Source: an uncultured cyanobacterium (GTDB lineage: Bacteria > Cyanobacteriota > Cyanobacteriia > Pseudanabaenales > Pseudanabaenaceae). From it: DNA of 64,000 bases. A program made the position numbers and the translations under genes. Location: positions 3,424,001-3,488,000 of the forward strand of contig OY969811.1 in assembly GCA_963703315.1 (NCBI GenBank), given 5' to 3'. Under the pieces are notes generated by a model that ran no database searches, had not been told where the DNA came from, and saw only the letters and a program-made list of their open reading frames with translations. This document shows positions 32,773-50,421 of the stretch, one piece after another. Every line of letters starts with the position of its first letter. Within the stretch, counting starts at the first letter, position 1.

Positions 32773-32961
32773 TTATTTTGGTAATGGAACGCTTAAATCT
32801 TTGCAAATCTTTTTTGCTAGGTTTTCATCAATTTCAGTATGACGCGGTATGGAGGAGCGACGGTTTTGGCTAGGATTTCCCCACCATGAATGTCTTCCAC
32901 CTTCTCTAATTAGCTCACAGCCATGATTACGAAGATGACGCAGTAAGTCAGAACGTTTCAT
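32773..32961 (-). CDS. hicA: HicA-family toxin
   Basis: REGGRHSWW...IPRHTEIDENLAKKICKDL. Confidence 0.9.
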   Translation of the reverse strand: MKRSDLLRHLRNHGCELIREGGRHSWWGNPSQNRRSSIPRHTEIDENLAKKICKDLSVPLPK

Positions 32962-33170: not shown

Positions 33171-33232
33171 TATGGCTAAATCCTCAATGATTTGCATCCA
33201 TCATAACTCATCAGCAATCTCTATACAAGATA

Positions 33233-33325
33233 GCGATCGCCCCTCTAAAAAATCAACCAGCGATCGCCTCTCCATCACCACAAACATCGGATCGCCCCTC
33301 TAGAAATCAATCAAACAGCGATCGC
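33233..33325. repeat. Four HIP1/HIP1-like sites separated by 19-22-nt spacers
   Basis: Sites at 33233, 33260, 33288 (CGGATCGC) and 33318; last base overlaps the relE stop codon. Confidence 0.8.
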
Positions 33326-33585
33326 TATCTATATACATCTCTCCGATGAGCAACTTTCACCACAGTAACCAAAAGTATTCGATCCTGTATTTCGTAAACA
33401 ACGCGATAGTTACTAAAAACGCGAATTCTATACAGATTAACTTCCCCTTTTAACTTCTTGCATCCATCAGGGCGTGGGTTATTCGCTAGTAACTCAATCT
33501 CTGAAATAATTACTTTCCTAGCAGTTTCATCAAGCTTGCGAATCTCTTTCAAAACAGAGGGCTTAAAGCCAATTTCGTATGGCAT
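33325..33585 (-). CDS. relE: RelE/ParE-family toxin
   Basis: NPRPDGCKKLKG..YRIRV..YRVVYEI...VAHRRDVYR. Confidence 0.92.
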   Translation of the reverse strand: MPYEIGFKPSVLKEIRKLDETARKVIISEIELLANNPRPDGCKKLKGEVNLYRIRVFSNYRVVYEIQDRILLVTVVKVAHRRDVYR

Positions 33586-33846
33586 CTAAATAATTCCCAA
33601 TTCCTTTTTGACATCTGCCAAAGTAATAAATCCATCCTCCTGTAAAGCGATTTTTGCATCCGCAATATCTTCAGCATCTTCCATTTCCTCTAAAACTTGG
33701 TTTAGTATCGTCTTAGAAGAAATGGAGCCTATGGCGGTATTTATCTGACTCTGACGAAACAGGCGAACTAGCCTCAATAATTCTGGAATATACTCTTCGG
33801 GAGTTTGTTCAAGTTCTGATAATAGTTCAAGACGTGGGTTTACCAT
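33586..33846 (-). CDS. Antitoxin (DUF2281-like N-terminus, acidic C-terminus)
   Basis: Immediately upstream of relE; EMEDAEDIADA...ITLADVKKELG. Confidence 0.75.
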   Translation of the reverse strand: MVNPRLELLSELEQTPEEYIPELLRLVRLFRQSQINTAIGSISSKTILNQVLEEMEDAEDIADAKIALQEDGFITLADVKKELGII

Positions 33847-33929
33847 TAAATTCACCTTGCACAAATTTTGTAAAAATCAAGGTGAGCCATTTATAGACTC
33901 ACCCTAAATATTATACGCAAATCAACTAA

Positions 33930-36530
33930 CTACTTCGCGATCGCAGGCATACCCAAAATGTCCTCAATGCGAGGCATATCCTCCAATGAAATCACCCGAC
34001 CTTGATCTTCAAAATTGGAGATTTGATCAAAATTGAGATAGCGGTAGAGGTCACTGGCAAAGGGATCGATCTTCTTAGTGACGATCGCTTGATATTCTTC
34101 CACGGTTGGAATCTTACCTAGCAAGGCACAGACCGCCGCGAGTTCGGCGGAACCGAGATAGACTTGAGCATCCTTGCCCATGCGATTATTGAAGTTGCGG
34201 GTGGAAGTGGAGAAGACGGTTGCGCCATCGGCAACACGAGCTTGATTACCCATGCAGAGAGAGCAGCCAGGGACTTCCGTTCTGGCTCCAGCGACACCGA
34301 AGGTGCTGTAGATTCCTTCTTCTTTGAGTTGGAACTCGTCCATGCGGGTAGGTGGTGCGACCCAGAGACGGGCTTTCACGGCGGCTTCCTTTTCGAGAAC
34401 CTTAGCGGCGGCGCGGTAATGTCCGATATTGGTCATGCAGGAACCGATAAAGACCTCATCCACGCGATCGCCTGCTACTTCGGAGAGCAACTTCACATTA
34501 TCAGGATCGTTAGGTGCAGCGACAATTGGCTCCTTGATTTCATTGAGATCGATCTCGATGATTTCTGCATATTCGGCATCAGGATCGGCTTCCATTAATA
34601 CAGGATTAGCGAGCCATTCTTCCATTTTAGCGATACGGCGCAAGAGCGTCTTGGCATCGCTGTAGCCACGAGCGATCATGTTCTTCATGAGCGCGACATT
34701 CGATCGCAAGTACTCGGCAACGGTTTCTGTACTGAGCTTAATCGTGCTGCCAGAGCAGGAACGTTCGGCAGTGGCATCAGTGAGTTCAAAGGCTTGTTCC
34801 ACTTTCAGATTGGGTAAACCTTCGATTTCCATAATCCGACCTGCGAAGACATTCTTTTTGTTCTTTTTCTCAACGGTGAGCAAGCCTCGTTGAATGGCAA
34901 TATAAGGAATGGCATTGACGACATCGCGGAGGGTGACACCAGCTTGCAACTCGCCTGTGAAGCGCACTAGAACGGACTCAGGCATATCGAGGGGCATGAT
35001 GCCAAGGGCGGCGGCGAAGGCGACTAGTCCTGAACCTGCGGGGAAAGAAATGCCCAAGGGGAAACGGGTATGGGAATCGCCACCAGTACCGACGGTATCG
35101 GGCATGAGCATTCTATTTAACCAAGAATGGATAATACCATCGTTGGGACGTAGGGCAACGCCGCCACGATTGGAGAAGAAGTCGGGAAGTTCCTTATGGG
35201 TTTTGATGTCGGTGGGTTTGGGATAGGCGGCAGTATGGCAGAAGCTCTGCATCACCAAGTCAGCGCTAAATCCTAAGCAAGCGAGTTCCTGCAATTCATC
35301 GCGGGTCATTGGTCCCGTTGTATCTTGGGAACCAACGGTTGTCATTAAGGGTTCGCAGGAAGTGTAGGGACGCACACCAGCAACGCCGCAAGCTTTGCCC
35401 ACCATCTTTTGGGCGAGGGTGTAGCCTTTGCCTGTGTCGGCAGGAGTGGCGGGAAGGATGAACACATCGCTAGCGGGAAGTCCTAAAGCTTGACGGGTTC
35501 TGGCGGTGAGGCTGCGACCAATCAAGAGAGGAATGCGACCACCTGCGCGAACTTCATCGGCGATCGTGTCAGGGGTGAGGCTGAAGGTGGAGAGAGTTTC
35601 ACCTGCGGCGTTCGTGATTTTACCTTCGCGAGTATGAATCGTAATCACATCGCCTGTTTCCAATTTGGTGACATCGCACTGAATTGGTAAGGCTCCCGCA
35701 TCTTCAGCAGTGTTAAAGAAGATCGGTGCGATCGTGCTTCCCAAAATTACACCGCCCGATCGCTTGTTGGGAATAAAGGGAATATCGTTGCCAATGTGCC
35801 ACAGCACCGAGTTAATCGCCGATTTGCGCGAAGAACCTGTTCCCACCACATCACCGACAAAGGCGACGGGATGCCCTTTTTGCTTGAGTTCGGCAATGGT
35901 TTGCAGACCCGTTGGCATCATTGATTCCAACATACAGAGCGCGTGGAGGGGAATGTCAGGACGCGAGAATGCCTGAGAAGCAGGAGAGAAGTCATCGGTA
36001 TTGATTTCTCCTGTGACTTTAAATACGGTCACGGTCACAGTTTCAGGTAAGGCAGGACGGCTAGTAAACCATTCCGCCGCCGCCCATGAATCGATGACCG
36101 CTTTAGCTCTGGCGTTAGTTTTCGATAATTCTAAAACTTGATTAAAAGCATCAAATACTAGCAGCGTCTTCTTGAGAGCCGTCGCCGCCAAGTCACCTAA
36201 ATCATCATTAGTTAACAAATCGATCAGGGTCTGCACGTTATAGCCACCGACCATCGTGCCGAGCAATTCCACCGCATAGGCTGGACTAACTAGGGAGGAT
36301 GTGAGTTCACCCTTAGCGATCGCCGTTAGCCATCCTGCTTTCACATAAGCAGCTTGATCGACCCCAGGGGGAATGCGATCGCGTAGTAAGGCTAGTAAAA
36401 ACTCCTCTTCGCCTGTGGGGGGATTTTGCAATAGCTCACAAAGGGCTGAGGCTTGTTGAGCATTGAGGGGTAGAGGGGGGATTCCTTGGGCTGCGCGTTC
36501 GGCAACATGATCACGGTAGGCTGATAACAT
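33930..36530 (-). CDS. acnB: Aconitate hydratase B
   Basis: [40 protein letters not shown]. Confidence 0.98.
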
Positions 36531-36679: not shown

Positions 36680-38287
36680 TTATAAATTTTCCTGAAAAGT
36701 GAAATGAAAACTTGTACCTACAGAACAGGATAAATCTAAATTAGCTCTCAATTGTTGCGCCAAAATTTTCACTAATCGGAGTCCGAGCGAATTAGTTCCA
36801 CTAAAGTCAACATTTTCAGGAAGACCAATTCCATTATCTCGAATAATCAAATGTAAATTGCGATCATCGGTAGACTCGTATAAAATCACCTCAATTAATC
36901 CTGTCATCTTGTTTGGAAATGCATATTTAAAAGCATTAGTTAATAGCTCATTCACGATTAGCCCCATGGAAATTGCCATGTCGATATTTAGTAAAGTGGA
37001 ACTAATATCTAGCTTTAATTCAATTTGAGTGATATTAAAACTTGTAGAACTATAGAGATTACTAACCAAACGCTGTAAATATTCACAAAAATCAACTTTA
37101 TCCACATCATGAGATTGATATAACTGCTCATGAATCAGTGACATTGTGTGAATCCGACGTTGGCTGTCTGAGAGTGATTTGAGGGCTTCTACATCATTGA
37201 CATACCGAGCTTGCATTGATAGTAAACTATCAATCACACTCAGATTGTTCTTAACACGATGATGGACTTCTCTTAACAGAACTTCCTTTTCTACAAGGGA
37301 TGCTTGTAGCCTTGTTTCTACTTCCTTTAACTCAGTAATATCTGAAGCAGAACCAATTATTTGCTTAACCGTGCCATCAGAATTGCGTAGAAATACAGTC
37401 TCTTGGCTATAAAACCATTTCCACTTACCATGAACATCTTTCATCCGATATTCAATAAGAAACAAATCTTCCAGTTTTTGATTACGGATATGATGATGAT
37501 GTTCTGCTATTTTTACCAAATCATCAGGATGCATAATAATTGCAAGCATTGACGCACCCATTGCATGAACCTCTAAGGAAGAATAACCAAGAATATGGTT
37601 AATTGTCTGGTTGCAATAAATATTACGTTTTTCTTCAAGATCGTAAATATAGAGAATATTGGGAATTGTATCGGCAATCCTTTGGATAAATTGCTGACTT
37701 TCTTTGAGTGCTTGTTCAGCTTGTTTGCGTGTCAGGGCGATCGCGATATAAGTAACGACTGTCTGCATTAATTGAACTTCTTCTTCTGTAAACTGTCGCG
37801 GCGTATCGAAATACGCGACAATATCACCTAAATGTCGATGTTCGTACTCTAATGGGAAGACAGCGATCGCACCAATACTTTCAGATTGACAGATACTCTG
37901 CAAGGTAGAATCGCTAGGTAGGATCGCGCAATAAGGGAAAGACCGAAATCTTGCTTCTACTTGATGGGATGGATCTTCAAAAAAAGTCTCGATAGATCGC
38001 TTATATCCTTGACTAATACCAATCGATGCTCGGTATTTTAGACTGTGATAAGCATTCGTAGTGATTACGGCTGCTCGTGAAGTTCGTAAAGCAGGACAGA
38101 TTCCATTTAAAGCAATTTGATAGATTTCATTAATTGTTTGCGCGGCATTCAAAGCCGATACAAAATCGTACATTAACTTTAAACGATGCAGTTGCAAATT
38201 TAAGCGATCTTCAGCCATTTGCTGATCGGCGATCGTTTGCACTAATTGAAGATTGACCTCTCTAAGTTCAGGATGTAGTTTAGGCAT
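36680..38287 (-). CDS. GAF-PAS sensor histidine kinase (HisKA_2/HWE type)
   Basis: EVHHRVKNNL, NELLTNAFKYAF, DNGIG; PAS HPDD; start placed at MPKL. Confidence 0.9.
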   Translation of the reverse strand: MPKLHPELREVNLQLVQTIADQQMAEDRLNLQLHRLKLMYDFVSALNAAQTINEIYQIALNGICPALRTSRAAVITTNAYHSLKYRASIGISQGYKRSIETFFEDPSHQVEARFRSFPYCAILPSDSTLQSICQSESIGAIAVFPLEYEHRHLGDIVAYFDTPRQFTEEEVQLMQTVVTYIAIALTRKQAEQALKESQQFIQRIADTIPNILYIYDLEEKRNIYCNQTINHILGYSSLEVHAMGASMLAIIMHPDDLVKIAEHHHHIRNQKLEDLFLIEYRMKDVHGKWKWFYSQETVFLRNSDGTVKQIIGSASDITELKEVETRLQASLVEKEVLLREVHHRVKNNLSVIDSLLSMQARYVNDVEALKSLSDSQRRIHTMSLIHEQLYQSHDVDKVDFCEYLQRLVSNLYSSTSFNITQIELKLDISSTLLNIDMAISMGLIVNELLTNAFKYAFPNKMTGLIEVILYESTDDRNLHLIIRDNGIGLPENVDFSGTNSLGLRLVKILAQQLRANLDLSCSVGTSFHFTFQENL

Positions 38288-39668
38288 GGGACTCACCTCC
38301 AACGATCGCATTCTTAATTCTCAAACTAGGAGAACCGCAACCAACGGCTAATCCACTTTGTCCACCTTTGCCACAGCCGCCCGACTCATCCCATAAGAAG
38401 TCATTACCGATCGCCTCAATATCTGCAAGAGTTTCAAACACATTTCCTGACAGGGTTACATCTTTGACAGGCTCAGCGATTTGACCATTGCGAATCATCC
38501 AAGCTTCACCTGCGGTAAACGTGAACATCTCGCCATTAGTCATGCCACCTTGCCAGTTTTTGGCATAGACACCCACAGGAATATCGTTAAACAACTCAGC
38601 CACAGGCGTTTTACCACGCTCAATCCAAGTATTAGTCATGCGAACAATCGGTGGGTAATGGTAATCGAGACATCGGGCGTTGCCAGTTACTTGTTCACCC
38701 AATTTCCCTGCGGTCTCACGGGAATGGAGTCTGCCAACTAATACGCCATCTTGAATTAATTGAGTTGTGGTCGCGGGGACACCTTCATCGTCATAGAGAT
38801 AACTGCCGCGATGTTCAGGGGGGGCAGCACCATCAAAAATCTGTAAGTCGGCGGAACCAAATTTGCGACCGATACTCATGGTTTCGAGCATATCGGGATT
38901 TTCGTACAGCATATCGGCTTCGGAAAGATGTCCAAAAGCTTCATGGACAAATAATCCTGCCAAAATCGGATCGAGCACCACCGTATAGGCATTGCCCTGA
39001 ACCACTGGTAAATCAAGCGCCGTTACTGCTCGTTGGGCTGCACCAATTACCTGCGCGTCCAAATTAACTAAATCTGTATAGGAACGCCTTGAGCCAAAGG
39101 TTTCTCGACCAGTCTGGACAGTATCACCATTCCTCGCGGTTGCCGAGCAGCGCATTTCCCAATCCGCCCATTCTTGTTCAATGATCGTTCCTTCGGAAGT
39201 GGCAAATAAAACCTGCTGGGTACAGTCACCATAGCGCACAGCAGTACTAACTACGCGGTCAGATACCGATCGCAAAATTTCCCCATAATGAGCGCATAAA
39301 TTCTTTTTATCAATTAGTGCAATCTGTTGCGGACTTTCTTGAATGAGGGATACTTTTGCTTGAATGGGTTCGACTGCTGCTAGCACAGTTTCCTCATTGC
39401 CAACCCATTTAGCAGCAGCGATCGCCTCTTGTAATTTAATTTCTAAACTATTCAGATCATTAAAACTTGCAAATCCCCACCCGCCGCGATGACAAGCTCT
39501 CACCTGCCCACCAATTGAAATGCCCGTACTCAGAGTTTCGATTTTGCCACTGCGTAAAAATATATCTGCCCCCTGCGATCGCTCTAATCGAATTGCCAAA
39601 AAATCTACATGGGGCTTGTATTGCTGCACTAAACTCGAAATCTGATCTTTAACTTGCCATATATCCAT
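38280..39668 (-). CDS. tldD: TldD-family metalloprotease
   Basis: HEAFGHLSEAD, YDDEG, RMTNT, CGKGGQ. Confidence 0.93.
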   Translation of the reverse strand: MDIWQVKDQISSLVQQYKPHVDFLAIRLERSQGADIFLRSGKIETLSTGISIGGQVRACHRGGWGFASFNDLNSLEIKLQEAIAAAKWVGNEETVLAAVEPIQAKVSLIQESPQQIALIDKKNLCAHYGEILRSVSDRVVSTAVRYGDCTQQVLFATSEGTIIEQEWADWEMRCSATARNGDTVQTGRETFGSRRSYTDLVNLDAQVIGAAQRAVTALDLPVVQGNAYTVVLDPILAGLFVHEAFGHLSEADMLYENPDMLETMSIGRKFGSADLQIFDGAAPPEHRGSYLYDDEGVPATTTQLIQDGVLVGRLHSRETAGKLGEQVTGNARCLDYHYPPIVRMTNTWIERGKTPVAELFNDIPVGVYAKNWQGGMTNGEMFTFTAGEAWMIRNGQIAEPVKDVTLSGNVFETLADIEAIGNDFLWDESGGCGKGGQSGLAVGCGSPSLRIKNAIVGGESHA

Positions 39669-39763
39669 GTGTAAAGCTCACCAAAAAGATCTATATGCGT
39701 CTCAGAGCTAATTATTACACAAAAAAATCGCCTTTATATCTAAAATATGTATTCAAATTAATA

Positions 39764-39868: not shown

Positions 39869-40765
39869 ATGTCACGCGATTTCGCCAAACCTGCTAAAAC
39901 TTTTGAAGAGCAGGTGCAATTACTTCAGTCACGGGGAATGATAGTTGACGATTTACAAGAAGCGAGATTTTATCTTCAGCATCTTAACTACTACAGACTT
40001 GGTGCATATTGGCTTGATTTTGAATTAGACCATGCTACACATCAGTTTAAGCCTGATACAAATTTTAAAGATGTGCTTAAACTTTATATTTTTGACCGAG
40101 AGCTTCGGTTGTTAGTTTTGGATGGTATTGAACGAATAGAAGTATCTGTGAGGAGTCAATGGGCTTATTATTTGGCGCATCGCCATAGTCCTCATGCTCA
40201 TCTCGATTCTACTCTGTTCGATCCTAAATATTGGAGAATGAACCTAAATGATTTAACGAAGGAAGTAAATCGTTCAAAAGAGATTTTTATTCAACATCTA
40301 ACAAACAATTACAATGAGGCACTTCCACCAGTTTGGGCAATATGTGAGGTTATGTCTTTGGGCTTGCTTTCTCGATGGTATGACAGCCTTAAACCTGTTC
40401 AAACTCGTCGGGTGATTTCGCGTGTTTATGGAATAAATGAAGATGTTTTGGAGTCTTGGCTTCGTCACCTTTCAGCAGTGCGAAATCTTTGCGCTCATCA
40501 TTCGCGATTATGGAATCGTCAATTTGGGATTACGATAAAAAGCCCTCCCCGCAAGGGTAATGTGATCGCTGGTCAGTTAGTCAAAGGATCTCGCAACCTG
40601 TATAACACTTTGGTGATTCTGTTGTACTTTATGGATACGATCGCCCCAAACCATCATTTGCGATCGCGTCTTCTCAAGTTACTTTCTGAGCAGCCAGAGA
40701 GATTAGTTGCTATGGGTTTTCCTGTTAATTGGCAGCAGATGGGTATTTGGCAAGATATCGTATAG
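39869..40765 (+). CDS. Abi_2 (AbiD/AbiF) family HEPN protein
   Basis: [42 protein letters not shown] motif [13 protein letters not shown]. Confidence 0.92.
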
Positions 40766-40802
40766 CGCACCTTCAATCTCTGTGAAAATAAATAGCGATC
40801 GC
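40761..40802 (+). repeat. Cassette-junction module alpha, copy 1 (left HIP1 degenerate)
   Basis: accttcaatctctgtgaaaataaata (26 nt) + GCGATCGC at 40795. Confidence 0.75.
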
Positions 40803-40845
40803 AAGCCAGTAAAATAAATAGCATCGTTATTTTAGGTTTGTAGTT

Positions 40846-41097
40846 ATGACCTTCACCGAGTTATTGCCGAAGCTTCAAAAACTAAACCCTTCCGATAAAC
40901 TTAGGGCTATTCAGTTTTTAGCGACTGAATTATCAAAAATAGAAAATTTTGCCATTGATGATACTGAATCTCAATCTTGGTTAGAAGCTGATTTGACTAA
41001 TGATTTGCCTGAGTATGACTGGGGAGAAGAGGGAATACCAAGTATGAAGCCTGTGGAATATGTTTCTGGTATTGGTTTAGTGGTAAAGGCAGGATAG
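40846..41097 (+). CDS. Putative antitoxin of the PemK/MazF toxin
   Basis: 83 aa acidic protein 5 bp upstream of the toxin. Confidence 0.7.
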   Translation: MTFTELLPKLQKLNPSDKLRAIQFLATELSKIENFAIDDTESQSWLEADLTNDLPEYDWGEEGIPSMKPVEYVSGIGLVVKAG

Positions 41098-41102
41098 AGA
41101 TT

Positions 41103-41468
41103 TTGAATAATCAGCTTCTCAAATGTGGTGATGTTGTTTTTGTTAACCTGCCGTCTCATAACCCTAAAGGACATGAACAGGAAGGGAGAAGACCTGCTGT
41201 AATTGTTGGTGTACCTTTGGGAGATGTGCGTTATCCTGTTGCGGTTGTGGTTCCCTTAACTACTCAATTTGGTGGCTGGGTCAATAGAAATTCTGCACTA
41301 TATCCAATTATTCAAGCTGGAACTGCGGGATTACCTCAGAAATCAGTTGCTTTGTGCGATCAAATAAGGGCGGTGGATATCCAGAGAGTAATTGGATATT
41401 TGGGTAGCCTAAGTTTTGAGCAATATTTGCCGATTATTGATGGAGTAAGACGGGTTTTGGATTTGTAA
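41103..41468 (+). CDS. PemK/MazF-family toxin
   Basis: GDVVFVNL...GHEQEGRRPAVIV...VVPLTT...SVALCDQIRAVD. Confidence 0.92.
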   Translation: MNNQLLKCGDVVFVNLPSHNPKGHEQEGRRPAVIVGVPLGDVRYPVAVVVPLTTQFGGWVNRNSALYPIIQAGTAGLPQKSVALCDQIRAVDIQRVIGYLGSLSFEQYLPIIDGVRRVLDL

Positions 41469-41479
41469 TAATTTATAAG

Positions 41480-41521
41480 GCGATCGCCTCTTTAAGCTCT
41501 GTGCAGGTAAAGTGCGATCGC
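41480..41521 (+). repeat. Cassette-junction module alpha, copy 2
   Basis: GCGATCGC-ctctttaagctctgtgcaggtaaagt-GCGATCGC. Confidence 0.85.
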
Positions 41522-41530
41522 CTAAGTTTT

Positions 41531-42085
41531 TTAGTTAAACCTACCCACAAAATTTGGCACAGAGGTTTTTAAAACATTGAGCAAGTCTGTAACCGACATG
41601 GGTGGCTTTTTTAAATCACTTGCCTGAGTCTGGAGAACTTGCCTGATCTCTTGAGGGAATAAATCATGTAGATAGGTTAAAAATTGATCGGCGCTTTGGG
41701 CTTCAACTTGATATTGGCTCAGAACTACTGCGGGAAAGTGCTTCAGATTTTCGGTGACAATTACATGAGCTTTGGCAATCAAAGCCGCCGCTAAAACATG
41801 GCGATCGCCTTCATGGTTATCCATACAAGGAATTAAGCGATCGGTCACATTGAGCATCGCATCAGGGAAAGCCCGATTAATTTGCACTTCTAGCCGATTC
41901 ACTTGCTGGCTCTGCATTTTCTGATTTGCTACTAAATTTCGTAGCGCCCCGTCTAAGATTTCTTGTGACCAATGCACTTGATACAGTCCAGCCTCAGCAG
42001 CACGAAGCAAAGTATCTCTCAAATACATTGGATAAAGCACACAGGAGTCAAGCACAACGGGAAATCGAGAGGATTGCAAACTCAT
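41531..42085 (-). CDS. PIN-domain toxin (PIN_3/VapC50-like)
   Basis: VVLDSCVL, DRHVLAAA, IVTENLKHFP. Confidence 0.9.
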   Translation of the reverse strand: MSLQSSRFPVVLDSCVLYPMYLRDTLLRAAEAGLYQVHWSQEILDGALRNLVANQKMQSQQVNRLEVQINRAFPDAMLNVTDRLIPCMDNHEGDRHVLAAALIAKAHVIVTENLKHFPAVVLSQYQVEAQSADQFLTYLHDLFPQEIRQVLQTQASDLKKPPMSVTDLLNVLKTSVPNFVGRFN

Positions 42086-42561
42086 TACGCTGGTGAAATA
42101 GCCTCGGTTAAGGGGACATCCTCTGGCGTATAAAATCCCAACTCTTGACTAAGTTCAGTAAGCTCACTCAAAGCCTGATGACGCTGAGCATCTCTCTGTT
42201 TTTTGTACTGCATTAAATCTTGAAACTGGATACGGCGATGCGTACCCACCTTGATATAGGGGATATCGCCTTGATCTAACAATTTATATAAATAAGGACG
42301 GGAAACATTGAGCAAGTCAGAAGCTTGAATCGTACTCAAATGCAAGTTATAAGGAACCAAGGATATAACTTGTCCCAATGCCATCATGTGAATAACTTGC
42401 CGAAGGGCTTGATATATGGAGTCTGGCAACATGATTTCTTCACCGTCTAGACCGACAAGCTTGGGATATGCTTTTTCTAGCATTGCCTCTAGGCGCTGTA
42501 TTGGTAAGGTGTCTGGCTCAGGCGCAAAGACAGAATCTGGTAGGTCGTTCAACATATACAT
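42085..42561 (-). CDS. Excisionase-like HTH_17 DNA-binding protein (antitoxin/regulator)
   Basis: LSTIQASDLLNVSRPYLYKLLDQGDIP...VGTHRRI; coupled to the PIN gene. Confidence 0.9.
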   Translation of the reverse strand: MYMLNDLPDSVFAPEPDTLPIQRLEAMLEKAYPKLVGLDGEEIMLPDSIYQALRQVIHMMALGQVISLVPYNLHLSTIQASDLLNVSRPYLYKLLDQGDIPYIKVGTHRRIQFQDLMQYKKQRDAQRHQALSELTELSQELGFYTPEDVPLTEAISPA

Positions 42562-42601
42562 ATTAAAGATTGCTGATGTTGAGATGGGTTGATTTTTGAA
42601 G

Positions 42602-42619
42602 TAAGTGTAATAAGTGTAA
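42602..42619. promoter_or_regulatory. Direct repeat TAAGTGTAA x2, candidate operator of the HTH_17 protein
   Basis: Exact 9-bp tandem repeat ~40 bp upstream of the start codon. Confidence 0.45.
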
Positions 42620-42640
42620 ATATACTATATGCCAATAAGA

Positions 42641-42690
42641 GCGATCGCGCGATCGCCCCTTTAATCTCTGTGAAAGTAAAGGGCGATCGC
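42641..42690 (+). repeat. Tandem HIP1 plus cassette-junction module alpha, copy 3
   Basis: GCGATCGC-GCGATCGC-ccctttaatctctgtgaaagtaaagg-GCGATCGC. Confidence 0.85.
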
Positions 42691-42748
42691 AACTATTTAA
42701 CTCAATCAAATTGATAAAATTTTTGTTAGTAGATTTAGTGACTAAGAA

Positions 42749-43888
42749 ATGACAAATCAGGACAGTCCAATATTACCTAGATTTCGTGTTTATGGGGAGA
42801 ATGCAGAGTTTGAGACTGAAAGACATCTAGAATGGTTGTTTTGGTATACGGTTCTTCCCAAAATTGGACTGAAGCCACTAAAAAGTCAGCATACTTGCAG
42901 AGAGGGGATTTGTGACATATTGGCGAAAGGAACCCAGAATCAACTCGTCATCATAGAGTTAAAAAATGTTGAAGATTCTCATGTTATTGAACAAATTACT
43001 GCATATTTCGATGCCCTTATCGAAGAAAAGCCCTTTAGCGAACAAATTGATTATACTAAACCTATTGACCTATACACTGTCTGTCCAACCTATAGGAATC
43101 GTACTGTAACAACATTAAAACACCACAAACTTAAATTTACTCTCTTAGCCTATGCAGTAAAAAGCAGCAATCAAGGCTTTATACTCACATTGTACGAATG
43201 GCTCACAAAGACAGAAATAGCCAAAATAGATATCCCAATAGCTGCTGAAATCGAACCTACAATTAATTTGCCTGATCCTCCAAAAGCTTTTGTTAACCTT
43301 TTAGGGAACTGTTCAGAGAATGAAAAGAAATGGGCTATTGAAATTCGTGATCAGATTTATCAATTGTCGCAATCTTTAAACTATAGAATTTATGAGAAGC
43401 CAGATGGTAAATGGGTTCGTTTTGAAAGAAACAAACAAAATCCTATCGCTGAGATAGGTTGGGAAAACAAAAGAGAAAGTCTTGCTGTTTATCTATGGCT
43501 GCCATTTGTGACTATTAATGGACAATGGAACATGAAGGCAAGAGCAAGAGATAGCTATAAAAGAACTGCCATGATGAGACTTTGGATAGTTGATGGCACT
43601 GTTCAATATGTTGCTTACATAGAAAATCAGAGAAAAAGTTGGCTAGTTGTTACTGATGAAGAAATTCAAACGAGCAAATTTACTAAGCCAGTAAAGTTAC
43701 AGAGAAAAGCTGACAGTGCTTACTGGAAAGGTCTAGCAATGCCTACAGATGTCTACCTTAATTTAATGGAATTGACTGCTCGTTCTCATTCTCTAAATGC
43801 TTTTGTAGAGTTGGCACTTGAACATTCTTTACAGAGACTAACTAAAAGTCGCCAGAAGAATATTATCGAAGTAGAATCTGACTTTTAG
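42749..43888 (+). CDS. PD-(D/E)xK nuclease (NucS/EndoMS-like N-terminus) with unknown C-terminal region
   Basis: FETERHLE...GICDILAK...LVIIELKN...QITAY. Confidence 0.75.
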   Translation: MTNQDSPILPRFRVYGENAEFETERHLEWLFWYTVLPKIGLKPLKSQHTCREGICDILAKGTQNQLVIIELKNVEDSHVIEQITAYFDALIEEKPFSEQIDYTKPIDLYTVCPTYRNRTVTTLKHHKLKFTLLAYAVKSSNQGFILTLYEWLTKTEIAKIDIPIAAEIEPTINLPDPPKAFVNLLGNCSENEKKWAIEIRDQIYQLSQSLNYRIYEKPDGKWVRFERNKQNPIAEIGWENKRESLAVYLWLPFVTINGQWNMKARARDSYKRTAMMRLWIVDGTVQYVAYIENQRKSWLVVTDEEIQTSKFTKPVKLQRKADSAYWKGLAMPTDVYLNLMELTARSHSLNAFVELALEHSLQRLTKSRQKNIIEVESDF

Positions 43889-44028
43889 TGATCGCCTTTA
43901 CTACACTTATTTAGCTAAAATTTCATAAACCAATCAATTGTTTAACATCATTTAAAACGATCGCCCCTCTAATCATGATTTTACTTTTAGCAAATAGCGA
44001 TCGCCTTGTGATGTGATTATTTGAGAAG
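43888..44028 (+). repeat. Cassette-junction modules beta-gamma-delta (delta interrupted by the IS)
   Basis: HIP1-like sites at 43888 (GTGATCGC), 43957 (ACGATCGC) and 43997; homologous to the 46048, 47081 and 47779 spacers. Confidence 0.85.
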
Positions 44029-45321
44029 TAGGGCAACCGCACACGTTTCTTAACAAACTAGCGAACATTTCTTAACGAGGAAAAAAGGGAGAAACGGGAG
44101 AATTGAGGATATTTAGAAAGATAAGTCCAAAATGCTAGCAACAGTCAGTCCCGTCGGATTAATCGAAACCCACTTTGGGAACTTGCAAGATCCCAGAGCA
44201 GCACACAGTATCCTGCATAAGCTACTCGACATATTGATAATCACGATTTGTGCAGTGATCTGTGGAGCCGATAACTTCGTAGCAATCGCCGAATATGGCA
44301 AAGAGAAAGAAGAATGGTTAAAGACATTTTTGGAATTAGCAAACGGCATACCGTCAGTAGATACATTCGAGAGATTATTTGCGAGACTGAAGCCAGAAGC
44401 ATTGCAAAAAAGCTTTATTAGCTGGATGGAAGCAGTCCATGAATCCACCGACGGAGAATTGATAAACATAGATGGCAAAACCCTGAGAGGAGCAAAGGAA
44501 GCAGGAAATTCGCGTAGTCTGATTCATATGGTGAGTGTGTGGTCAGCATCACAACATTTGGTATTGGGACAGCAAAAAGTGGACGAGAAATCCAATGAAA
44601 TAACAGCGATTCCATCATTGCTAAAAATGTTAGCGATACGAGGTTGTGTGGTGAGCATAGATGCAATGGGATGTCAGACCGAAATCGCGAAAACAATCAT
44701 CGAAGAGGGAGCAGATTATGTGTTAGCACTGAAAGGCAATCAAGGTAATCTCCATAAAGATGTGCGTGAACTATTTACCTCTGCACGAGAACAGAACTTC
44801 AAAAATATTGAACATCAGTTCTATGAAACGGTTGAGAAAGGACATGGGCGCATTGAAACTCGTCGCTATTGGACAATGGGTAATACCGAATACTTAATCG
44901 GTGCAGAGAAATGGATAGGTTTGAAAAGTATTGGTATGGTTGAATCAGAGCGCATTATAAATGGAATTATTTCTACTGAGCAGCGATACTATCTGCTTAG
45001 TCTTGAGAGTGATGTCCACAGATTTTCCCAATCTGTCAGAAATCACTGGAGTATTGAAAATCAACTACATTGGATTCTTGATGTTGGTTTTGGTGAAGAT
45101 GCTTCGCAATCCTGCCGAGGCTATATTGCCGAAAACTTGGCTGTTATACGTCATATCAGTTTAAATTTGTTGTCAAGAGATAAAAACAGTAAGGTCGGTG
45201 TCAAGACAAAACGTCTTAAAGCTGGCTGGAACAACAACTATCTTAAGGATATCCTGAGTACCTTAAACATAGTCGCTGTCTAAATCTCGTTAATTGTTAA
45301 GAAACGTGTGCGGTTGCCCTA
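44029..45321 (+). mobile_element. ISAs1-family insertion sequence, 1293 bp
   Basis: Perfect 28-bp TIR tagggcaaccgcacacgtttcttaacaa (44029-44056 / 45294-45321); 10-bp target duplication ATTTGAGAAG (44019-44028 / 45322-45331). Confidence 0.97.
44132..45283 (+). CDS. ISAs1-family transposase
   Basis: IDGKTLRG, KSNEITAIP, IDAMGCQ, LKGNQ, HGRIETR, HWSIENQLHWILDV. Confidence 0.97.
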   Translation: MLATVSPVGLIETHFGNLQDPRAAHSILHKLLDILIITICAVICGADNFVAIAEYGKEKEEWLKTFLELANGIPSVDTFERLFARLKPEALQKSFISWMEAVHESTDGELINIDGKTLRGAKEAGNSRSLIHMVSVWSASQHLVLGQQKVDEKSNEITAIPSLLKMLAIRGCVVSIDAMGCQTEIAKTIIEEGADYVLALKGNQGNLHKDVRELFTSAREQNFKNIEHQFYETVEKGHGRIETRRYWTMGNTEYLIGAEKWIGLKSIGMVESERIINGIISTEQRYYLLSLESDVHRFSQSVRNHWSIENQLHWILDVGFGEDASQSCRGYIAENLAVIRHISLNLLSRDKNSKVGVKTKRLKAGWNNNYLKDILSTLNIVAV

Positions 45322-45397
45322 ATTTGAGAAGCGATCGCCCCAAACCATTCAAGACGGATATGTTACTCTAGCAATACGTTACTGGTGCTGTAAAACT

Positions 45398-45649
45398 ATG
45401 AAACTACAAATTCAAGGCATTAAATCAGGGCAGACGATTCAACTGCTAGATATAGTTAATATTCCTGATGGAACAGTATTTCTGGAAATTGAAGCAGATA
45501 AACCTAAAGATAAAAGCGCAAGAATAGCAAGACTAAATCGTATATTCGGCGCATGGCGCAACCAGCAAGACATTGATCTAATATTTGCGGATATTGACAC
45601 ACAACGCCATCGTGACTATGGCAGAAAAATCGACTCCTTTGACTTCTAA
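45398..45649 (+). CDS. Putative antitoxin of VapC
   Basis: 83 aa, 6 bp upstream of vapC; GQTIQL...IPDG and FGAW motifs common in VapC partners. Confidence 0.7.
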   Translation: MKLQIQGIKSGQTIQLLDIVNIPDGTVFLEIEADKPKDKSARIARLNRIFGAWRNQQDIDLIFADIDTQRHRDYGRKIDSFDF

Positions 45650-45655
45650 TTATCC

Positions 45656-46048
45656 ATGTATTTACTTGACACCAACATCTGTATTGCACTGCTAAAAGGC
45701 AATTCTCAAGTTATTTCATCTTTTAATGCTTGTGCTGATGAATGCTATATTTCCACAATTAATGTTGCCGAACTTTATAAGGGAGTCTACTGCTCACAAC
45801 GAATAGAACAGAACCTTGCATCACTTGAGCTTTTTCTCCAAGATATGTCAATTGTCAGCTTCGATCTATTAGCTGCCAAAGAATTTGGCAAAATCCAATC
45901 AGAACTTAGACAAATCGGTAAACCCACAGGCGAACTAGATACCATGATTGCAGCTATAGCGCGATCGCGTCATGATCGAGTAGTTACGAATAACACAAAA
46001 GACTTTATCAATATTTCTGGATTAGGGTTGGAAAATTGGATCGTTTAG
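45656..46048 (+). CDS. vapC: VapC PIN toxin
   Basis: YLLDTNICI, ELYKG, DTMIAAIA, VTNNTKDF, LENW. Confidence 0.95.
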   Translation: MYLLDTNICIALLKGNSQVISSFNACADECYISTINVAELYKGVYCSQRIEQNLASLELFLQDMSIVSFDLLAAKEFGKIQSELRQIGKPTGELDTMIAAIARSRHDRVVTNNTKDFINISGLGLENWIV

Positions 46049-46164
46049 CGATCGCCTTTACTGCACTTATTCAAATAGCGATTTGGCTAAAATCTGATAA
46101 ACCAAGCATTTGTTTAACATCATTTAAAGCGATCGCGATTTTACTTTTAGCAAATTGCGATCTA
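46048..46164 (+). repeat. Cassette-junction modules beta-gamma
   Basis: HIP1 at 46048 (shares G with vapC TAG), 46129 and degenerate 46157. Confidence 0.88.
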
Positions 46165-46222
46165 CCTATAATAACAACTATATAACCTCTATAATAGGTA
46201 GATAGTCTTAGACTTAAAACCT

Positions 46223-46579
46223 ATGCTCAAAGAACTTTTTGGTGGTAAAATACCCGAACAGGTTTTGCTATATCTGGAAAATTATGAAGAAGGCTACGGC
46301 AAAGCGATCGCCGATACCTTTGAGATATCCTTGAGTTCAGTACAGAAACAACTGCAAAAATTTGAAGACTCAGGCTTATTAGTTAGTCGCTTAGTCGGCA
46401 AAACTCGCCTCTATACATGGAACCCGCGATCGCCCTTTGTAACGACCGTTAGAAACCTACTAGCCCAGCGTCTCAAAGTCACCCCACCCGAAGAAATCAA
46501 AGCTTACTACCGCCAACGCCGTCGCCCTCGCAAAGCTGATAAACCCCTTGGAAATACACAAAACCTCATCCCTAGCTGA
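46223..46579 (+). CDS. Winged-HTH (ArsR-like) protein, partner of the nucleotidyltransferase
   Basis: IADTFEISLSSVQKQLQKFEDSGLLVSRLVGKTRLY. Confidence 0.8.
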   Translation: MLKELFGGKIPEQVLLYLENYEEGYGKAIADTFEISLSSVQKQLQKFEDSGLLVSRLVGKTRLYTWNPRSPFVTTVRNLLAQRLKVTPPEEIKAYYRQRRRPRKADKPLGNTQNLIPS

Positions 46580-47081
46580 AATCGCTGCGATCGTCTCAGA
46601 TACGCTTACCAAAGCAAACATTATCGCCGTGCTAACAGGTGGCGGAGTCGTTACAGTGTACTCAGAAAACGAATATCAATCTGACGATCTCGACTTTATT
46701 TCTCCCGCTAGTTCTCAAAAGCTAGAAGCAGCCATGTCTCAAATAGGATTTAGCAAGGAAAGCAGATATTTTATCCATCCAAATACAACTTATTATGTTG
46801 AGTTCCCTCCATCCCCCCTAATGATTGGGGAACAGTACATTGATTACAAAGAATGCACCGTGCAGAAAATTGGTGAATTAGAATTACACATTCTGACCCC
46901 GACTTTATGCGTCATGGATCGCCTTGCAGGTTTCTATCACTGGAACGATCGTCAAAGTCTTGATCAAGCAGTCATGGTTGCAAAACGTCATCCGATAGAT
47001 TTTAAAAGAGTGAAGTTATGGTCAACCAAGGAAAAGCAACAGAAAAAATATCAGGACTTTTTAGATAGGCTGCAAGATTAG
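46548..47081 (+). CDS. Nucleotidyltransferase-fold protein (AbiEii/DUF6036-like)
   Basis: VLTGGG...YQSDDLDFI Pol-beta-type motif; overlaps the wHTH gene. Confidence 0.7.
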   Translation: MEIHKTSSLAEIAAIVSDTLTKANIIAVLTGGGVVTVYSENEYQSDDLDFISPASSQKLEAAMSQIGFSKESRYFIHPNTTYYVEFPPSPLMIGEQYIDYKECTVQKIGELELHILTPTLCVMDRLAGFYHWNDRQSLDQAVMVAKRHPIDFKRVKLWSTKEKQQKKYQDFLDRLQD

Positions 47082-47209
47082 CGATCGCCCTTACTGCACT
47101 TATTCAAATAACGATTTAGCTAAAATCTCATAAACCAAGCATTTGTTTAACATCATTTAAGGCGATCGTCATTGATCGTTTATGGCATACAGCTTGGATA
47201 GGCGATCGC
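47081..47209 (+). repeat. Cassette-junction module beta plus epsilon-like module
   Basis: HIP1 at 47081 (shares G with TAG), 47162 (GCGATCGT) and 47202. Confidence 0.88.
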
Positions 47210-47214
47210 TAAAT

Positions 47215-47499
47215 TTAATAAACCTCATCATGAGAGCCAATATTTAACAATAAAATCGCATCCAGATCAGATTCAGACTTCTGTACAAACTCAAACAAAA
47301 TGCGATAGTTATAATCCACAGAACAAGCCCAAATATCTGAGAGATCGCCAACCAGTTTATGCGTTCTCAAACTTGGATGATAAGGATCTTCCACTAGTTG
47401 ACGCAACGTTTTTTCAATTAAAGGACGCAGTTGCGGACTTTTGCGAATTAGACGTTTAAAAGCTCGCTGAGATTTAGCAGTCCAATCAATATTTCTCAA
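47215..47499 (-). CDS. RelE/YafQ-family mRNA interferase
   Basis: PSLRTHKLVG...WACSVDYNYRILF...NIGSHDEVY. Confidence 0.9.
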   Translation of the reverse strand: MRNIDWTAKSQRAFKRLIRKSPQLRPLIEKTLRQLVEDPYHPSLRTHKLVGDLSDIWACSVDYNYRILFEFVQKSESDLDAILLLNIGSHDEVY

Positions 47500-47720
47500 C
47501 TATCCAACTCCGCCAAAAAATCATCAACAGAACCAGATTTGAATTTACCTTCTCGGTACTCCTGCTGAACCTCTCGAACTTCTTTAACAACTTGCTGCCG
47601 TTGACGCAACTTTAAACGATTATTCAACACGTCAATTAAAGCAACTTGATCATCCAAAGACAAAGCATCTACGGCATTGAGAGCTTCTTGAAATAGGGAT
47701 GTTTTTAAGGCTTGACTCAT
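47496..47720 (-). CDS. Antitoxin of the YafQ-like toxin
   Basis: 74 aa, 4-bp overlap with the toxin, GSVDDFLAEL tail. Confidence 0.8.
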   Translation of the reverse strand: MSQALKTSLFQEALNAVDALSLDDQVALIDVLNNRLKLRQRQQVVKEVREVQQEYREGKFKSGSVDDFLAELDS

Positions 47721-47778
47721 AGGATTATTTATGAAAATTTACACTATAACCTCGGTTGTCATTATACTTCAGAAAAAA

Positions 47779-47973
47779 GCGATCGCCCTTCACAGCAATT
47801 TATTCAAATAGCGATTTAGCCAAAATCTCATAAACCAAGCATTTGTTTAACATCATTTAAAGCGATCGCGATTTTACTTCACTCAACTTGTGATCGCCTT
47901 GTGATGAGATTATTTGAAAGGCGATCGCTGTTCATGGGATGGATAGGCGATCGCAGTGACTAAAAACTAATTA
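47779..47973 (+). repeat. Most complete junction: modules beta-gamma-delta-epsilon-zeta
   Basis: HIP1/HIP1-like sites at 47779, 47862, 47890, 47921 and 47947. Confidence 0.88.
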
Positions 47974-48495
47974 GCGAAAAACTTCTCTAATAGCCTCTAT
48001 AGGAAGACAAACCGACAAAGTTTCATTAAAAGGGACAAACTGAAATTTCTGAATGTAGTAGCTTTGCTTAATCTCATTACTAGGATCAACCCTAATCGCA
48101 TAAACACCAACATTTTGAGAACCATCAAGTATTCTCAAGAAAGCATCAATCATTAAGGCTTGCCCTATACCCATACCCTGACAGCTTTTATCTACTGCCA
48201 ACTTGCCAATCAAAACCACTGGGATCGGGTAACTAGGGAGCTTATCTTTATTGGGAAATGATTCGGGGAAATCAATCAAGCTCGCACTGAGAGTGTAATA
48301 GCCTAAAACTTTTAGATCATCCGCGATCGCGACAAATATTTTTGCAACACCCAACTGATCATTTTTGAGAGCATATTGCTTGATATATATCGATAGCTCT
48401 TGCTCATCATGTTCATCACCACAATCAAAAGCAAGCTTTCTCAAACCGCTCTTACTGAAACCACACTCAGCCAAAGACTTGATTACAAAATTCAT
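47971..48495 (-). CDS. GNAT acetyltransferase toxin (AtaT/TacT-like)
   Basis: FDCG, LGYYTLSAS, IPVVLIGKLAVDKSCQGMGIG. Confidence 0.88.
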   Translation of the reverse strand: MNFVIKSLAECGFSKSGLRKLAFDCGDEHDEQELSIYIKQYALKNDQLGVAKIFVAIADDLKVLGYYTLSASLIDFPESFPNKDKLPSYPIPVVLIGKLAVDKSCQGMGIGQALMIDAFLRILDGSQNVGVYAIRVDPSNEIKQSYYIQKFQFVPFNETLSVCLPIEAIREVFR

Positions 48496-48498
48496 TAA

Positions 48499-48768
48499 CT
48501 ATCGAGTTTGACTGGTTCTTAACAATGCTGCTAATTCCTGAGATAGCTTAGGCGGATTTTGCATCATTTCCACAAACTTTTGCGCGTCATTTTCAGACAG
48601 CACTAATACTTGATTGTCATAAGAAGCTTTCTCAAGGCTTTGAGACTGTACCGACTCTCTAGCAAGCCTAGAATTGCCAAAACCACGCATGAGACGTTTC
48701 CGCACCGAAAAACTCAATGCAGACCTAAAAACTTTGCGATTTACCTGTAAGGGAATCTGAGCCTTCAT
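48499..48768 (-). CDS. DUF1778-like antitoxin (only the C-terminal part recognisable)
   Basis: LVLSENDAQKFVEMMQNPPKLSQELAALL; upstream of the GNAT toxin. Confidence 0.65.
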   Translation of the reverse strand: MKAQIPLQVNRKVFRSALSFSVRKRLMRGFGNSRLARESVQSQSLEKASYDNQVLVLSENDAQKFVEMMQNPPKLSQELAALLRTSQTR

Positions 48769-48860
48769 TATTTTGCACTGCTTTAACTCGCTCTAATGCT
48801 TTTGCAGTAACACAATTTTTACACACATAGCTGCTAAATAGGTAGATAAAAACAAATTAA

Positions 48861-48946
48861 GCGATCGCGGTTTTATTTTTTAGCAAGTAGCGATCGCCTT
48901 AAATGAGATTATTTGAGAGGCGATCGCAGTAACTAAAAAGTAATTA
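48861..48946 (+). repeat. Cassette-junction modules gamma-delta-zeta (right end of the array)
   Basis: HIP1 at 48861, 48890 and 48920; agtaactaaaaagtaatta matches agtgactaaaaactaatta at 47955. Confidence 0.85.
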
Positions 48947-48971
48947 CAATTTTTACGAGTCGTGAAGCGTA

Positions 48972-49025
48972 AAGCCCCCGTCTTTCAATCTGCCCTGTAC
49001 ACAAAGTGGATTGAAAGACGGGGAA
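48972..49025. repeat. Palindrome resembling an IS200/IS605-type end hairpin
   Basis: aagcccccgtctttcaatc...gattgaaagacgggg. Confidence 0.45.
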
Positions 49026-49029
49026 TATG

Positions 49030-50421
49030 TCAATAACTGGTTAATTCTGCGCTAGCTGGTGGCTCCTTTGTTGTACCAAATGCAATTCGTAAAAATGGTG
49101 GTGCGAGGAACGTGGTCAAAATCACCATGATGATAATCGCCACTTCTAGAGGTTTGTCGATCGCACCACTAGCCGTACCAATACCAGCAAAGACTAGACC
49201 AACTTCACCACGCGGAACCATACCAATACCGATCGCTAAGCGGTTGACATTAGGTATACCGAAAACCACCCAACCTGTGATCACTTTGCCCACGATCGCC
49301 ACTAACAGCAGGAACACGGCAATCAACAAGCCACTTCGATTTTCAGGAATCATCGGATTGAGGACACTGAGATCGGCTCTAGCACCGACAGTTACAAAGA
49401 ATACGGGTACGAGTAAATCCGCTACAGGTTTAATCAGTTCATCTAACTCATGGCGAGCATCGGTTTCATCTAGCACCAATCCTGCGGCAAAAGCTCCTAA
49501 GATTGCTTCCAGATGGATGGCATTGCCGATAAATGCCATCGCATAGGCAAAGATAAAAGCAGGAATGATGATACTGCCACGAGTTTGGAGTTTATCAACT
49601 ATTGCCACAAAACTTTTGTTAAAAAAGCCACCTAAAAGGATCGCACCAAATAAGAAGGCGATCGCGCTGATTAACAGAATTGCCACATTGGTAATATCAA
49701 CTTCACCTGTTTTCGCCAAACTTGCGACTACTGCTAAAACGATGATCCCTAATACATCATCAATGACAGCCGCACCCACGATGATTTGCCCCTCTTTCGA
49801 TTTTAGCTGACCGATTTCGGCAAGCACCTTAGAAGTAATGCCAATACTGGTTGCCGTGAGTGCCGCCCCTGCAAAAATCGCAGGAATTGCCGCAACATGG
49901 AAAAAGTACATTAGTCCCATTGTCCCTGCCGCAAAGGGAGCCGTCACACCGATAAAAGCAACTACGAAAGCTTGAATGCCGACTTCCTTGAGTTGACGGA
50001 TATCTGACTCTAAACCAATCTCAAACAGAAGGACAATCACGCCCAATTCTGCAATAACAGAAATTACTTCACTTTGTTCTGCAAATATGCTGTTGACGGC
50101 TTCGGGTGACAATTGATTCAACCACTGCAATCCCGACATTACTACAGAGTCCGATGCGGTAAAACCGCCTTCAGGAAAGATGACTAAGCGTAATGCTGAG
50201 ACCCCAATGATTACACCAGCTACTAATTCTCCTAAAACAGGAGGTAAGTCTAGTCGCTTGGCAATTTCACTGCCAATTTTGCTCGCAACGTAAATTAGGA
50301 CTAAGGTGAGCAATACCCCTGAAAGAATTATTGGCGCATTTTCTGACTCGGCAGTAGCAAGTAACGGTTGCGGTATCCGAAGTCCAGATAAATGATGCGC
50401 GATCGCCGCGATCGAAAACAT
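49030..50421 (-). CDS. CPA2 cation:proton antiporter (NhaS3-like)
   Basis: ALTATSIGIT, GAAVIDDVLG, GMVPRGEVG; many transmembrane helices. Confidence 0.93.
   Translation of the reverse strand: MFSIAAIAHHLSGLRIPQPLLATAESENAPIILSGVLLTLVLIYVASKIGSEIAKRLDLPPVLGELVAGVIIGVSALRLVIFPEGGFTASDSVVMSGLQWLNQLSPEAVNSIFAEQSEVISVIAELGVIVLLFEIGLESDIRQLKEVGIQAFVVAFIGVTAPFAAGTMGLMYFFHVAAIPAIFAGAALTATSIGITSKVLAEIGQLKSKEGQIIVGAAVIDDVLGIIVLAVVASLAKTGEVDITNVAILLISAIAFLFGAILLGGFFNKSFVAIVDKLQTRGSIIIPAFIFAYAMAFIGNAIHLEAILGAFAAGLVLDETDARHELDELIKPVADLLVPVFFVTVGARADLSVLNPMIPENRSGLLIAVFLLLVAIVGKVITGWVVFGIPNVNRLAIGIGMVPRGEVGLVFAGIGTASGAIDKPLEVAIIIMVILTTFLAPPFLRIAFGTTKEPPASAELTSY

Follow-up and report, generated by a model that had tools for sequence, protein, structure and literature searches.

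HIP1-bounded linkers join toxin–antitoxin and defence cassettes into directional, exchangeable arrays in a cyanobacterium of the family Pseudanabaenaceae

Organization of the array between tldD and the antiporter gene

The window analyzed here is a stretch of 64,000 nucleotides from an uncultured cyanobacterium of the Pseudanabaenaceae (assembly GCA_963703315.1, contig OY969811.1). It covers positions 3,424,001 to 3,488,000 of a source genome that consists of a single contig of 4.57 Mb and is 99.7% complete. Between tldD and a Na+/H+ antiporter gene lie eight cassettes with toxin–antitoxin (TA) and defence genes, joined by short linkers that are bounded by HIP1, a highly iterated palindrome of eight bases. 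The cassettes have fixed ends, the linkers run one way, the cassettes belong to a pool shared with relatives in which their order has changed, and cassettes were gained or lost at this locus. A preliminary description of this DNA had read the locus as an integron-like cassette-capture hotspot, a reading that the varying gene content, the breakpoints at HIP1, and the confinement of the modules support. The features are as follows (window positions, strand).

38280..39668, minus: tldD, left anchor gene, outside the array (Pfam PmbA_TldD)
39753..39758, no strand: 6-bp microhomology at the left junction, a non-HIP1 breakpoint (metagenome contigs)
39869..40765, plus: cassette 1, AbiF/AbiD-family abortive-infection protein (Pfam Abi_2, E 2e-57; PADLOC AbiD)
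40761..40802, plus: alpha linker 1, left HIP1 degenerate
40846..41468, plus: cassette 2, 83-aa candidate antitoxin and PemK/MazF toxin (Pfam PemK)
41480..41521, plus: alpha linker 2, HIP1–26 nt–HIP1
41531..42561, minus: cassette 3, HTH_17 protein and PIN_3 toxin (Pfam/NCBIfam)
42641..42690, plus: alpha linker 3, preceded by an extra HIP1
42749..43888, plus: cassette 4, NucS-like nuclease, between the alpha and beta zones (Pfam NucS_C)
43888..44028, plus: linker beta(short)-gamma-delta
44029..45321, plus: insertion sequence ISAs1 within delta (NCBIfam ISAs1; inverted repeats)
45331..46048, plus: cassette 5, HIP1, 83-aa candidate antitoxin (45398-45649) and VapC/PIN toxin (45656-46048; Pfam PIN)
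46048..46164, plus: linker beta-gamma
46223..47081, plus: cassette 6, winged-helix protein and 177-aa partner without family match
47081..47209, plus: linker beta-epsilon variant
47215..47720, minus: cassette 7, 74-aa candidate antitoxin and YafQ/ParE-like toxin (Pfam)
47779..47954, plus: linker beta-gamma-delta-epsilon, full form with five HIP1-like sites
47971..48768, minus: cassette 8, TacA1/DUF1778 antitoxin and GNAT toxin (Pfam)
48861..48956, plus: linker gamma-delta, followed by zeta
48957..49030, plus: strong hairpin at the right array end (fold z −6.4; one copy in the genome)
49030..50421, minus: Na+/H+ antiporter gene, right anchor

The gene calls of the preliminary description were borne out by Pfam, NCBIfam, or PADLOC for Abi_2/AbiD, PemK, PIN_3 with HTH_17, the NucS-like nuclease, PIN (VapC), the winged-helix protein, the ParE/YafQ-like toxin, and GNAT with TacA1. 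The same databases gave no family match for the three small antitoxin candidates or for the 177-aa protein that had been called a nucleotidyltransferase. The eight modules claimed between the two anchor genes are present as eight cassettes; the ISAs1 element within delta had been left out. It is flanked by a 10-bp target duplication (44019-44028 and 45322-45331), and its seven full copies in the genome are near-identical, which suggests that it spread through the genome recently. The hairpin at the right end appears to resemble an end of the IS200/IS605 family. Upstream of the AbiF gene, a conserved element without Rfam match (39790-39855) is also present at locus L062 of a relative and may be a non-coding RNA or a leader of the AbiF system.

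Linker modules and their distribution in the source genome

The modules that compose the linkers were found at the sites given in the preliminary description, all on the plus strand: alpha at 40769, 41488, and 42657, beta at 43896 (with a 12-nt deletion), 46056, 47089, and 47787, gamma at 43977, 46137, 47870, and 48869, and delta at 44005, 47898, and 48898. The uniform orientation described for all modules therefore holds for the linkers, whereas genes of the cassettes are found on either strand. Likewise, not every junction is built of reused segments: no module is present at the tldD–AbiF junction, and a left HIP1 is missing from the first alpha, while the other junctions carry HIP1-bracketed linkers. 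Zeta, which had been counted as a linker, duplicates flanking sequence of the GNAT cassette itself. An Rfam search returned no match apart from one sub-threshold hit (E 0.5) within a gene.

HIP1 occurs 8189 times in the 4.57 Mb of the genome. With 25 copies per 9.1 kb in the array compared to a genome mean of 16.3 (sd 4.7), its density by itself is mildly raised; the signal above chance is the modules rather than the HIP1 density. Alpha is present in six copies and beta in five, of which three and four, respectively, belong to the tldD–antiporter array. Most of the outside copies belong to two clusters, a small one with TA genes after tuf and another at 4.29 Mb, and a few solo copies of delta and gamma were found outside arrays. 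The genome-wide module search thus showed the modules to be restricted to accessory arrays and not to be an ordinary dispersed repeat.

Other arrays of the genome use other linkers. The 358 short intergenic HIP1-bounded segments yielded 22 clusters, 13 with at least three members and most of them confined to one to three loci. The repeated segments (117 in 29 loci, 17 of which hold at least two) are mostly locus-specific, and all 131 local pairs of similar linkers lie on the same strand. Matches to six TA-type families lie within 1 kb of 58 of the 117 repeated segments; the same holds for 50 of the 241 singletons and for 10.6% of non-coding positions drawn at random. Among 71 genes within the genome's arrays, which were hand-picked from 100 after insertion sequences, housekeeping genes, and likely spurious open reading frames had been dropped, 24 belong to named toxin or antitoxin families, 19 to domains of unknown function (DUFs) that we take to be TA-associated, and 10 to other families; 18 had no match. 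One long array (L111, genome positions 2729501-2749500) carries non-TA cargo (MerR, TauE, LysE, GNAT, DUF1993). A second small array with a different linker family lies in the window directly downstream of aconitase B:

32280..33944, no strand: antitoxin-like gene, HicAB-like pair, RelE/ParE pair

Its HicAB-like cassette is 89-94% identical to copies in beta arrays of four relatives, mostly with the same HIP1 ends, and at locus L069 of a relative a piece of either linker type is present.

The arrangement of short modules between HIP1 sequences recalls the small dispersed repeat SDR5 of the Nostocaceae (Elhai et al., 2008, as cited in the available parts of PMC4390886 and PMC5861425). SDR5 is described there as inserting precisely in HIP1 (PMC4390886), so that the linkers might be tiny SDR5-like mobile elements or regulatory insulators which insert at HIP1 and merely collect between TA operons; the solo delta and gamma copies and the possible hairpins would agree with this. 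We nevertheless regard it as quite improbable. The linker copies are local and share one strand, while insertion into a palindrome should be two-way. Across 31 loci, linker direction is independent of gene direction, and a reordering of cargo would not be explained. SDR5 is cited as dispersed and cargo-free, whereas the HIP1 linkers are clustered, run one way, and bracket exchangeable genes, a comparison made by description and not by sequence. Furthermore, the available text of PMC5861425 reports no SDR-like repeat outside the Nostocaceae lineage.

Arrays with the same linkers in relatives and in other families

In 43 of 47 other genomes of the same genus, the beta-gamma linker has matches, usually as same-strand copies 0.5-1.5 kb apart; the genes that it follows, and the loci, are unrelated. 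The relatives' arrays, studied at 30 loci that were taken for high copy number or long contigs, lie beside differing housekeeping genes and draw on a common cassette pool. Between the linkers (median spacing 627 nt), 68 gene families were distinguished, 30 of which are present in at least two of 31 loci; for all of these 30 the orientation relative to the linkers is constant. Most shared families are purely of the alpha-alpha, beta-beta, or alpha-beta class, among them the NucS-like cassette, which is of the alpha-to-beta class in both arrays that contain it. Alpha precedes beta in 19 of the 23 loci with both, and the remaining four comprise three mixed loci and one that an inversion splits; the counts of cassette class and zone order come from a linker detector that overlooked some degenerate linkers.

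Gene content and order vary between relatives. Cassette order is discordant in 10 of the 30 pairs that co-occur at least twice (the inverted locus L068 excluded), and since loss cannot reverse order, loss alone is excluded. This bears on the possibility that the linkers are passive leftovers: TA genes would enter by other routes at tolerant spots, deletions from HIP1 to HIP1 would leave stubs, and loss would be the sole route from ancestral clusters to the present arrays. Two of the modules, zeta and an epsilon variant, are indeed cassette flanks, HIP1-flanked deletion is documented in the accessible part of PMC13756078, and most TA genes have no detected linker nearby. Apart from the reversed order, stubs of unrelated genes should share neither sequence nor strand, yet one and the same linker is found after unrelated genes and at unrelated loci in most genomes of the genus, and we consider this explanation improbable.

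Relatives according to GTDB lack the locus itself. tldD and the antiporter gene are not neighbours in them; 40 anchor loci of relatives, on contigs several of which are short, gave no cassette match and one weak linker match at least 11 kb from the anchor, and no cassette or linker adjoins tldD in 20 relatives. The anchors that flank the relatives' arrays (L061-L100) usually map far apart in the source genome, and their pairing changes from genome to genome; the arrays may be rearrangement breakpoints.

Outside the genus, beta was found as weak matches of 24-35 nt in 5 of 399 other genomes of the phylum, with two candidates scored per genome. The linker family of the long array L111 at 2.73 Mb is common to the source genome and G149, a genome of another family. 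A triple-HIP1 pattern, present 33 times in the source genome compared to a null mean of 7, was used to hand-pick 20 regions of other families. In 11 of them, from 8 genomes of 5 families, small genes are surrounded by repeated linkers that share a strand; of 47 such genes, 30 match Pfam, mostly TA families, TA-associated DUFs, and XisH/XisI. As a specific array marker the pattern was rejected: the GC-rich genome G261 and a coding repeat (L168) match it too, and the other nine regions have no cassette between repeated linkers. The cassette array of the preliminary description is confirmed; arrays with different linker families and the reach beyond the genus had been missed.

Cassette ends and breakpoints

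Each cassette has constant flanks that reach out to a HIP1; the linker pieces and neighbours on its far side are variable. A HIP1 with at most one mismatch lies at 45 of 66 homologous cassette ends, and with at most two at 51. The homologous ends of cassette 2 are at HIP1 in 5/6 and 3/3 of the relatives' copies, those of cassette 7 in 5/5 and 7/8 copies, and the right end of cassette 6 in 7/7 copies. Unique intergenic homology ends within 5 nt of a HIP1-like site were counted in arrays (222 of 460) and in flanks (3 of 217); the nulls for the arrays were 14.5% (random array spacers) and 23% (surroundings of linkers). The predicted clustering of breakpoints at HIP1 is thus reflected in both kinds of ends. 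Beta is approximately 80-90% identical across species over its last two thirds. In a comparison of 86 beta matches, two of which looked spurious on inspection, the 5′ third of beta varied with the upstream cassette (permutation p 0.04), a pattern expected if crossovers lie within beta or at its edge.

Related contigs with joints at the tldD–antiporter locus were present in three of four metagenome runs (90% likeness). One contig joins the tldD flank directly to an alpha linker. A second skips cassettes 7 and 8, passing from 47078 to 48888 with 11 shared letters across HIP1, and a third skips cassette 8 from 47905 to 48905, inside delta, and continues into the antiporter gene. Loose contig ends at 42647-42651 and 42690 lie around alpha linker 3. 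Joints that go back were seen in other runs; altered order could produce them. Together, these contigs show that cassettes were gained or lost at the locus and that the joints lie at HIP1 or within linkers. On contigs with an intervening alpha, the tldD-side homology stops at 39758 and the AbiF-side homology begins at 39753, and the microhomology at the left junction is therefore likely the scar of a deletion that took out the first alpha linker.

Search for an integrase or another recombinase

The absence of an integrase from the window was borne out, and no integron integrase (IntI) exceeded the cut-off in the entire source genome (best TIGR02249 match E 2e-7, below cut-off). In the genus, IntI above cut-off was detected in 23 of 48 genomes. 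None of 10 IntI loci contains the linkers described here, and in three genomes with chromosome-length contigs IntI is at least 0.48 Mb away from them. One IntI locus has a canonical attC-like site (L083:7666); because few such sites were detected beyond it, many of the genus IntI may be solo integrases. The attC box pair matched 2 of 153 linkers.

Like an integron, the locus is a directional array of exchangeable cassettes. With sedentary chromosomal integrons and clusters of attC sites lacking integron integrases (CALINs) it shares directional repeats, TA- and defence-rich cassettes of 0.5-1.5 kb, a shared pool, and changing order. In the array, by contrast, IntI, attI, attC boxes, and a hairpin with covariation are absent, a genome has several unrelated linker families, cassette genes are found on either strand, and the real integrons of the genus are separate. 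The tldD–antiporter array is not an integron. That it is an orphan array of the CALIN type with degenerate attC sites would suit the cassette size, the TA-rich cargo, and the IntI of the genus; given the box-pair count and the position of IntI apart from the linkers, such an origin is very unlikely.

A recombinase acting in trans, which would read the HIP1-bracketed linkers as att-like sites and excise or insert cassettes as an integron integrase does, deserves more weight, and we still consider it unlikely. The cassette ends are precise, beta is well conserved, and alpha, strongly conserved across 48 copies, forms a stem closed by HIP1; moreover, the available portion of PMC4390886 cites site-specific recombination at HIP1. 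However, the linkers vary by locus and family, so that a single protein could read HIP1 only, which is present thousands of times, and cassettes rarely mix between the alpha and beta zones. The alpha stem shows no compensatory changes or covariation across the 48 copies. Linker hairpins as a functional structure were rejected, being largely a by-product of two palindromes without covariation.

A resolvase search of the source genome found none. The one clear tyrosine recombinase of the genome, a 507-aa XerC-like protein, was dismissed as the array enzyme, since it was not found at E 1e-60 in the array-bearing genomes G117, G143, G068, and G129, was found in genomes without triple-HIP1 match, and hence does not track the arrays. 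A weak second recombinase match proved to be a TetR fusion, and the single match to a Y1 transposase is far from the array. At L169:7585-8832, a TetR regulator is fused to a degenerate tyrosine-recombinase-like domain, and its neighbour resembles a fatty-acid desaturase. ComEC and DprA are present in the source genome.

As a further feature of the window, positions 52874-53320 encode a predicted lipoprotein with a five-residue tandem repeat.

Discussion

The observations are best accounted for by a gain, loss, and reordering of cassettes through short-homology recombination with crossovers at HIP1 or next to it and without a dedicated integrase, a reading to which we assign a probability of roughly 0.6. 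The palindromic HIP1 would be the crossover mark, while the non-palindromic linker between two HIP1 sites would provide pairing and direction; as a palindrome that is very common, HIP1 cannot by itself give direction or targeting. A direction given by the linker would explain the fixed orientation and the alpha-then-beta zoning. Donor DNA could be taken up by natural transformation, or it could come in the form of small circles that loop out from between two linkers. A crossover at HIP1 may carry along one HIP1-delimited piece of the donor linker, which would result in the mosaic beta-gamma-delta-epsilon linkers and an occasional change of a cassette's linker family. The TA cargo would persist because its loss is penalized, with phage defence as a possible benefit. 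The role of the modules as homology arms fits the data, whereas their alternative role as attC-like sites, which had also been considered, does not agree with the rare box pairs and the alpha stem.

Several results weigh against this mechanism. Cassette ends without HIP1 within one mismatch amount to 21 of 66 (for two ends the mapping of positions was poor), the cassettes with RelE and Phd-YoeB merge into mid-beta without HIP1, and the left junction of the array consists of a microhomology of 6 bp that is not HIP1. Between the 3′ part of beta and the downstream cassette the association is weak (p 0.06; 86 matches), and beta copies from one genome are hardly more similar than copies from different genomes. 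The compared genomes are kin, so that the counts are non-independent and the end counts inflated. Near a repeated linker are 30 of 125 TA-family matches, and most TA genes are located elsewhere. No clean empty site for the relatives' arrays was found in the source genome, where the left and right anchors are mostly far apart and hence uninformative. The metagenome run closest to the source genome has no joints, though contigs drop rare variants, and repeats or other organisms may account for joints at 90% likeness. Neither a recombination event nor a circle or an enzyme was directly observed, and metagenome contigs cannot show the absence of circles. Finally, the 42 bp of homology in alpha are short for RecA alone. 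With an alpha of 42 bp and many locus-specific pieces of 18-30 nt, the linkers are so short that plain RecA pairing would be marginal, and help by HIP1 is plausible.

Such help has a precedent. In the accessible part of a preprint, methylated homologous HIP1 sites are reported to raise integration more than 100-fold in Synechococcus PCC 7002 and are likened to Chi (bioRxiv 10.1101/2024.09.10.611283). Earlier, the available text of Elhai (2015; PMC4390886) cited evidence for site-specific recombination at HIP1 and declared that, at that time, none existed for a role in homologous recombination. HIP1 breakpoints are also known from the HIP1-flanked excision of smtB and from plasmid recombination at HIP1 (available parts of PMC13756078, PMC4390886, PMC9239245). 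As described there, these are single events without organized arrays or reusable linkers.

The closest counterpart that we encountered are the PeSLs of T4-type phages, promoter-plus-terminator units of approximately 100 bp for which the available text of Arbiol et al. (2010; PMC2839356) reports mini-circles. There as here, short intergenic repeats flank variable genes; in the phages, recombination between the repeats inserts, deletes, and shuffles cassettes without integrase, and it likely does so in the arrays, where the repeated element flanks strain-variable genes and gain or loss occurs at the repeat. Unlike the PeSLs as described in that text, the HIP1 linkers are chromosomal, composed of HIP1-delimited pieces, locus-specific, and associated with TA and defence cargo, and their direction ignores gene direction, which argues against a promoter-plus-terminator role.

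The open-access literature that was searched holds no description of HIP1-jointed cassette arrays; Elhai et al. (2008), subscription papers, and supplements lie outside that search. A term search in the available text of a Synechocystis TA survey (PMC4963859) retrieved neither HIP1 nor integrons.

Other bacteria provide partial analogies. The pdif modules of Acinetobacter are site-bounded TA modules that use XerC/D sites, the minimal mobile elements of Neisseria are cassettes exchanged by transformation between conserved flanking genes, and the pneumococcal BOX elements are modular repeats without cargo. To our knowledge, none of these uses HIP1.

According to the available parts of PMC5861425 and PMC13756078, the function of HIP1 has been an open question for about 30 years. 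In some species another palindrome takes its place (PMC4390886), and marine picocyanobacteria lack HIP. Tentatively, and at slightly less than even odds, we propose that HIP1 serves as the crossover code of a phylum-wide, integrase-free capture system, in which locus-specific linkers admit TA and defence cassettes from transforming DNA of other cyanobacteria into ordered arrays, and methylated HIP1 together with host recombination forms an equivalent of the integron. The arrays offer a defined HIP1 substrate with predictable crossover points and would provide a concrete job for the motif. The unnamed cassettes become candidate defence genes, and the linkers suggest landing pads of 40-180 bp for cyanobacterial engineering. 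If true, the proposal would account for the storage and exchange of part of the large repertoire of TA and defence genes in cyanobacteria.

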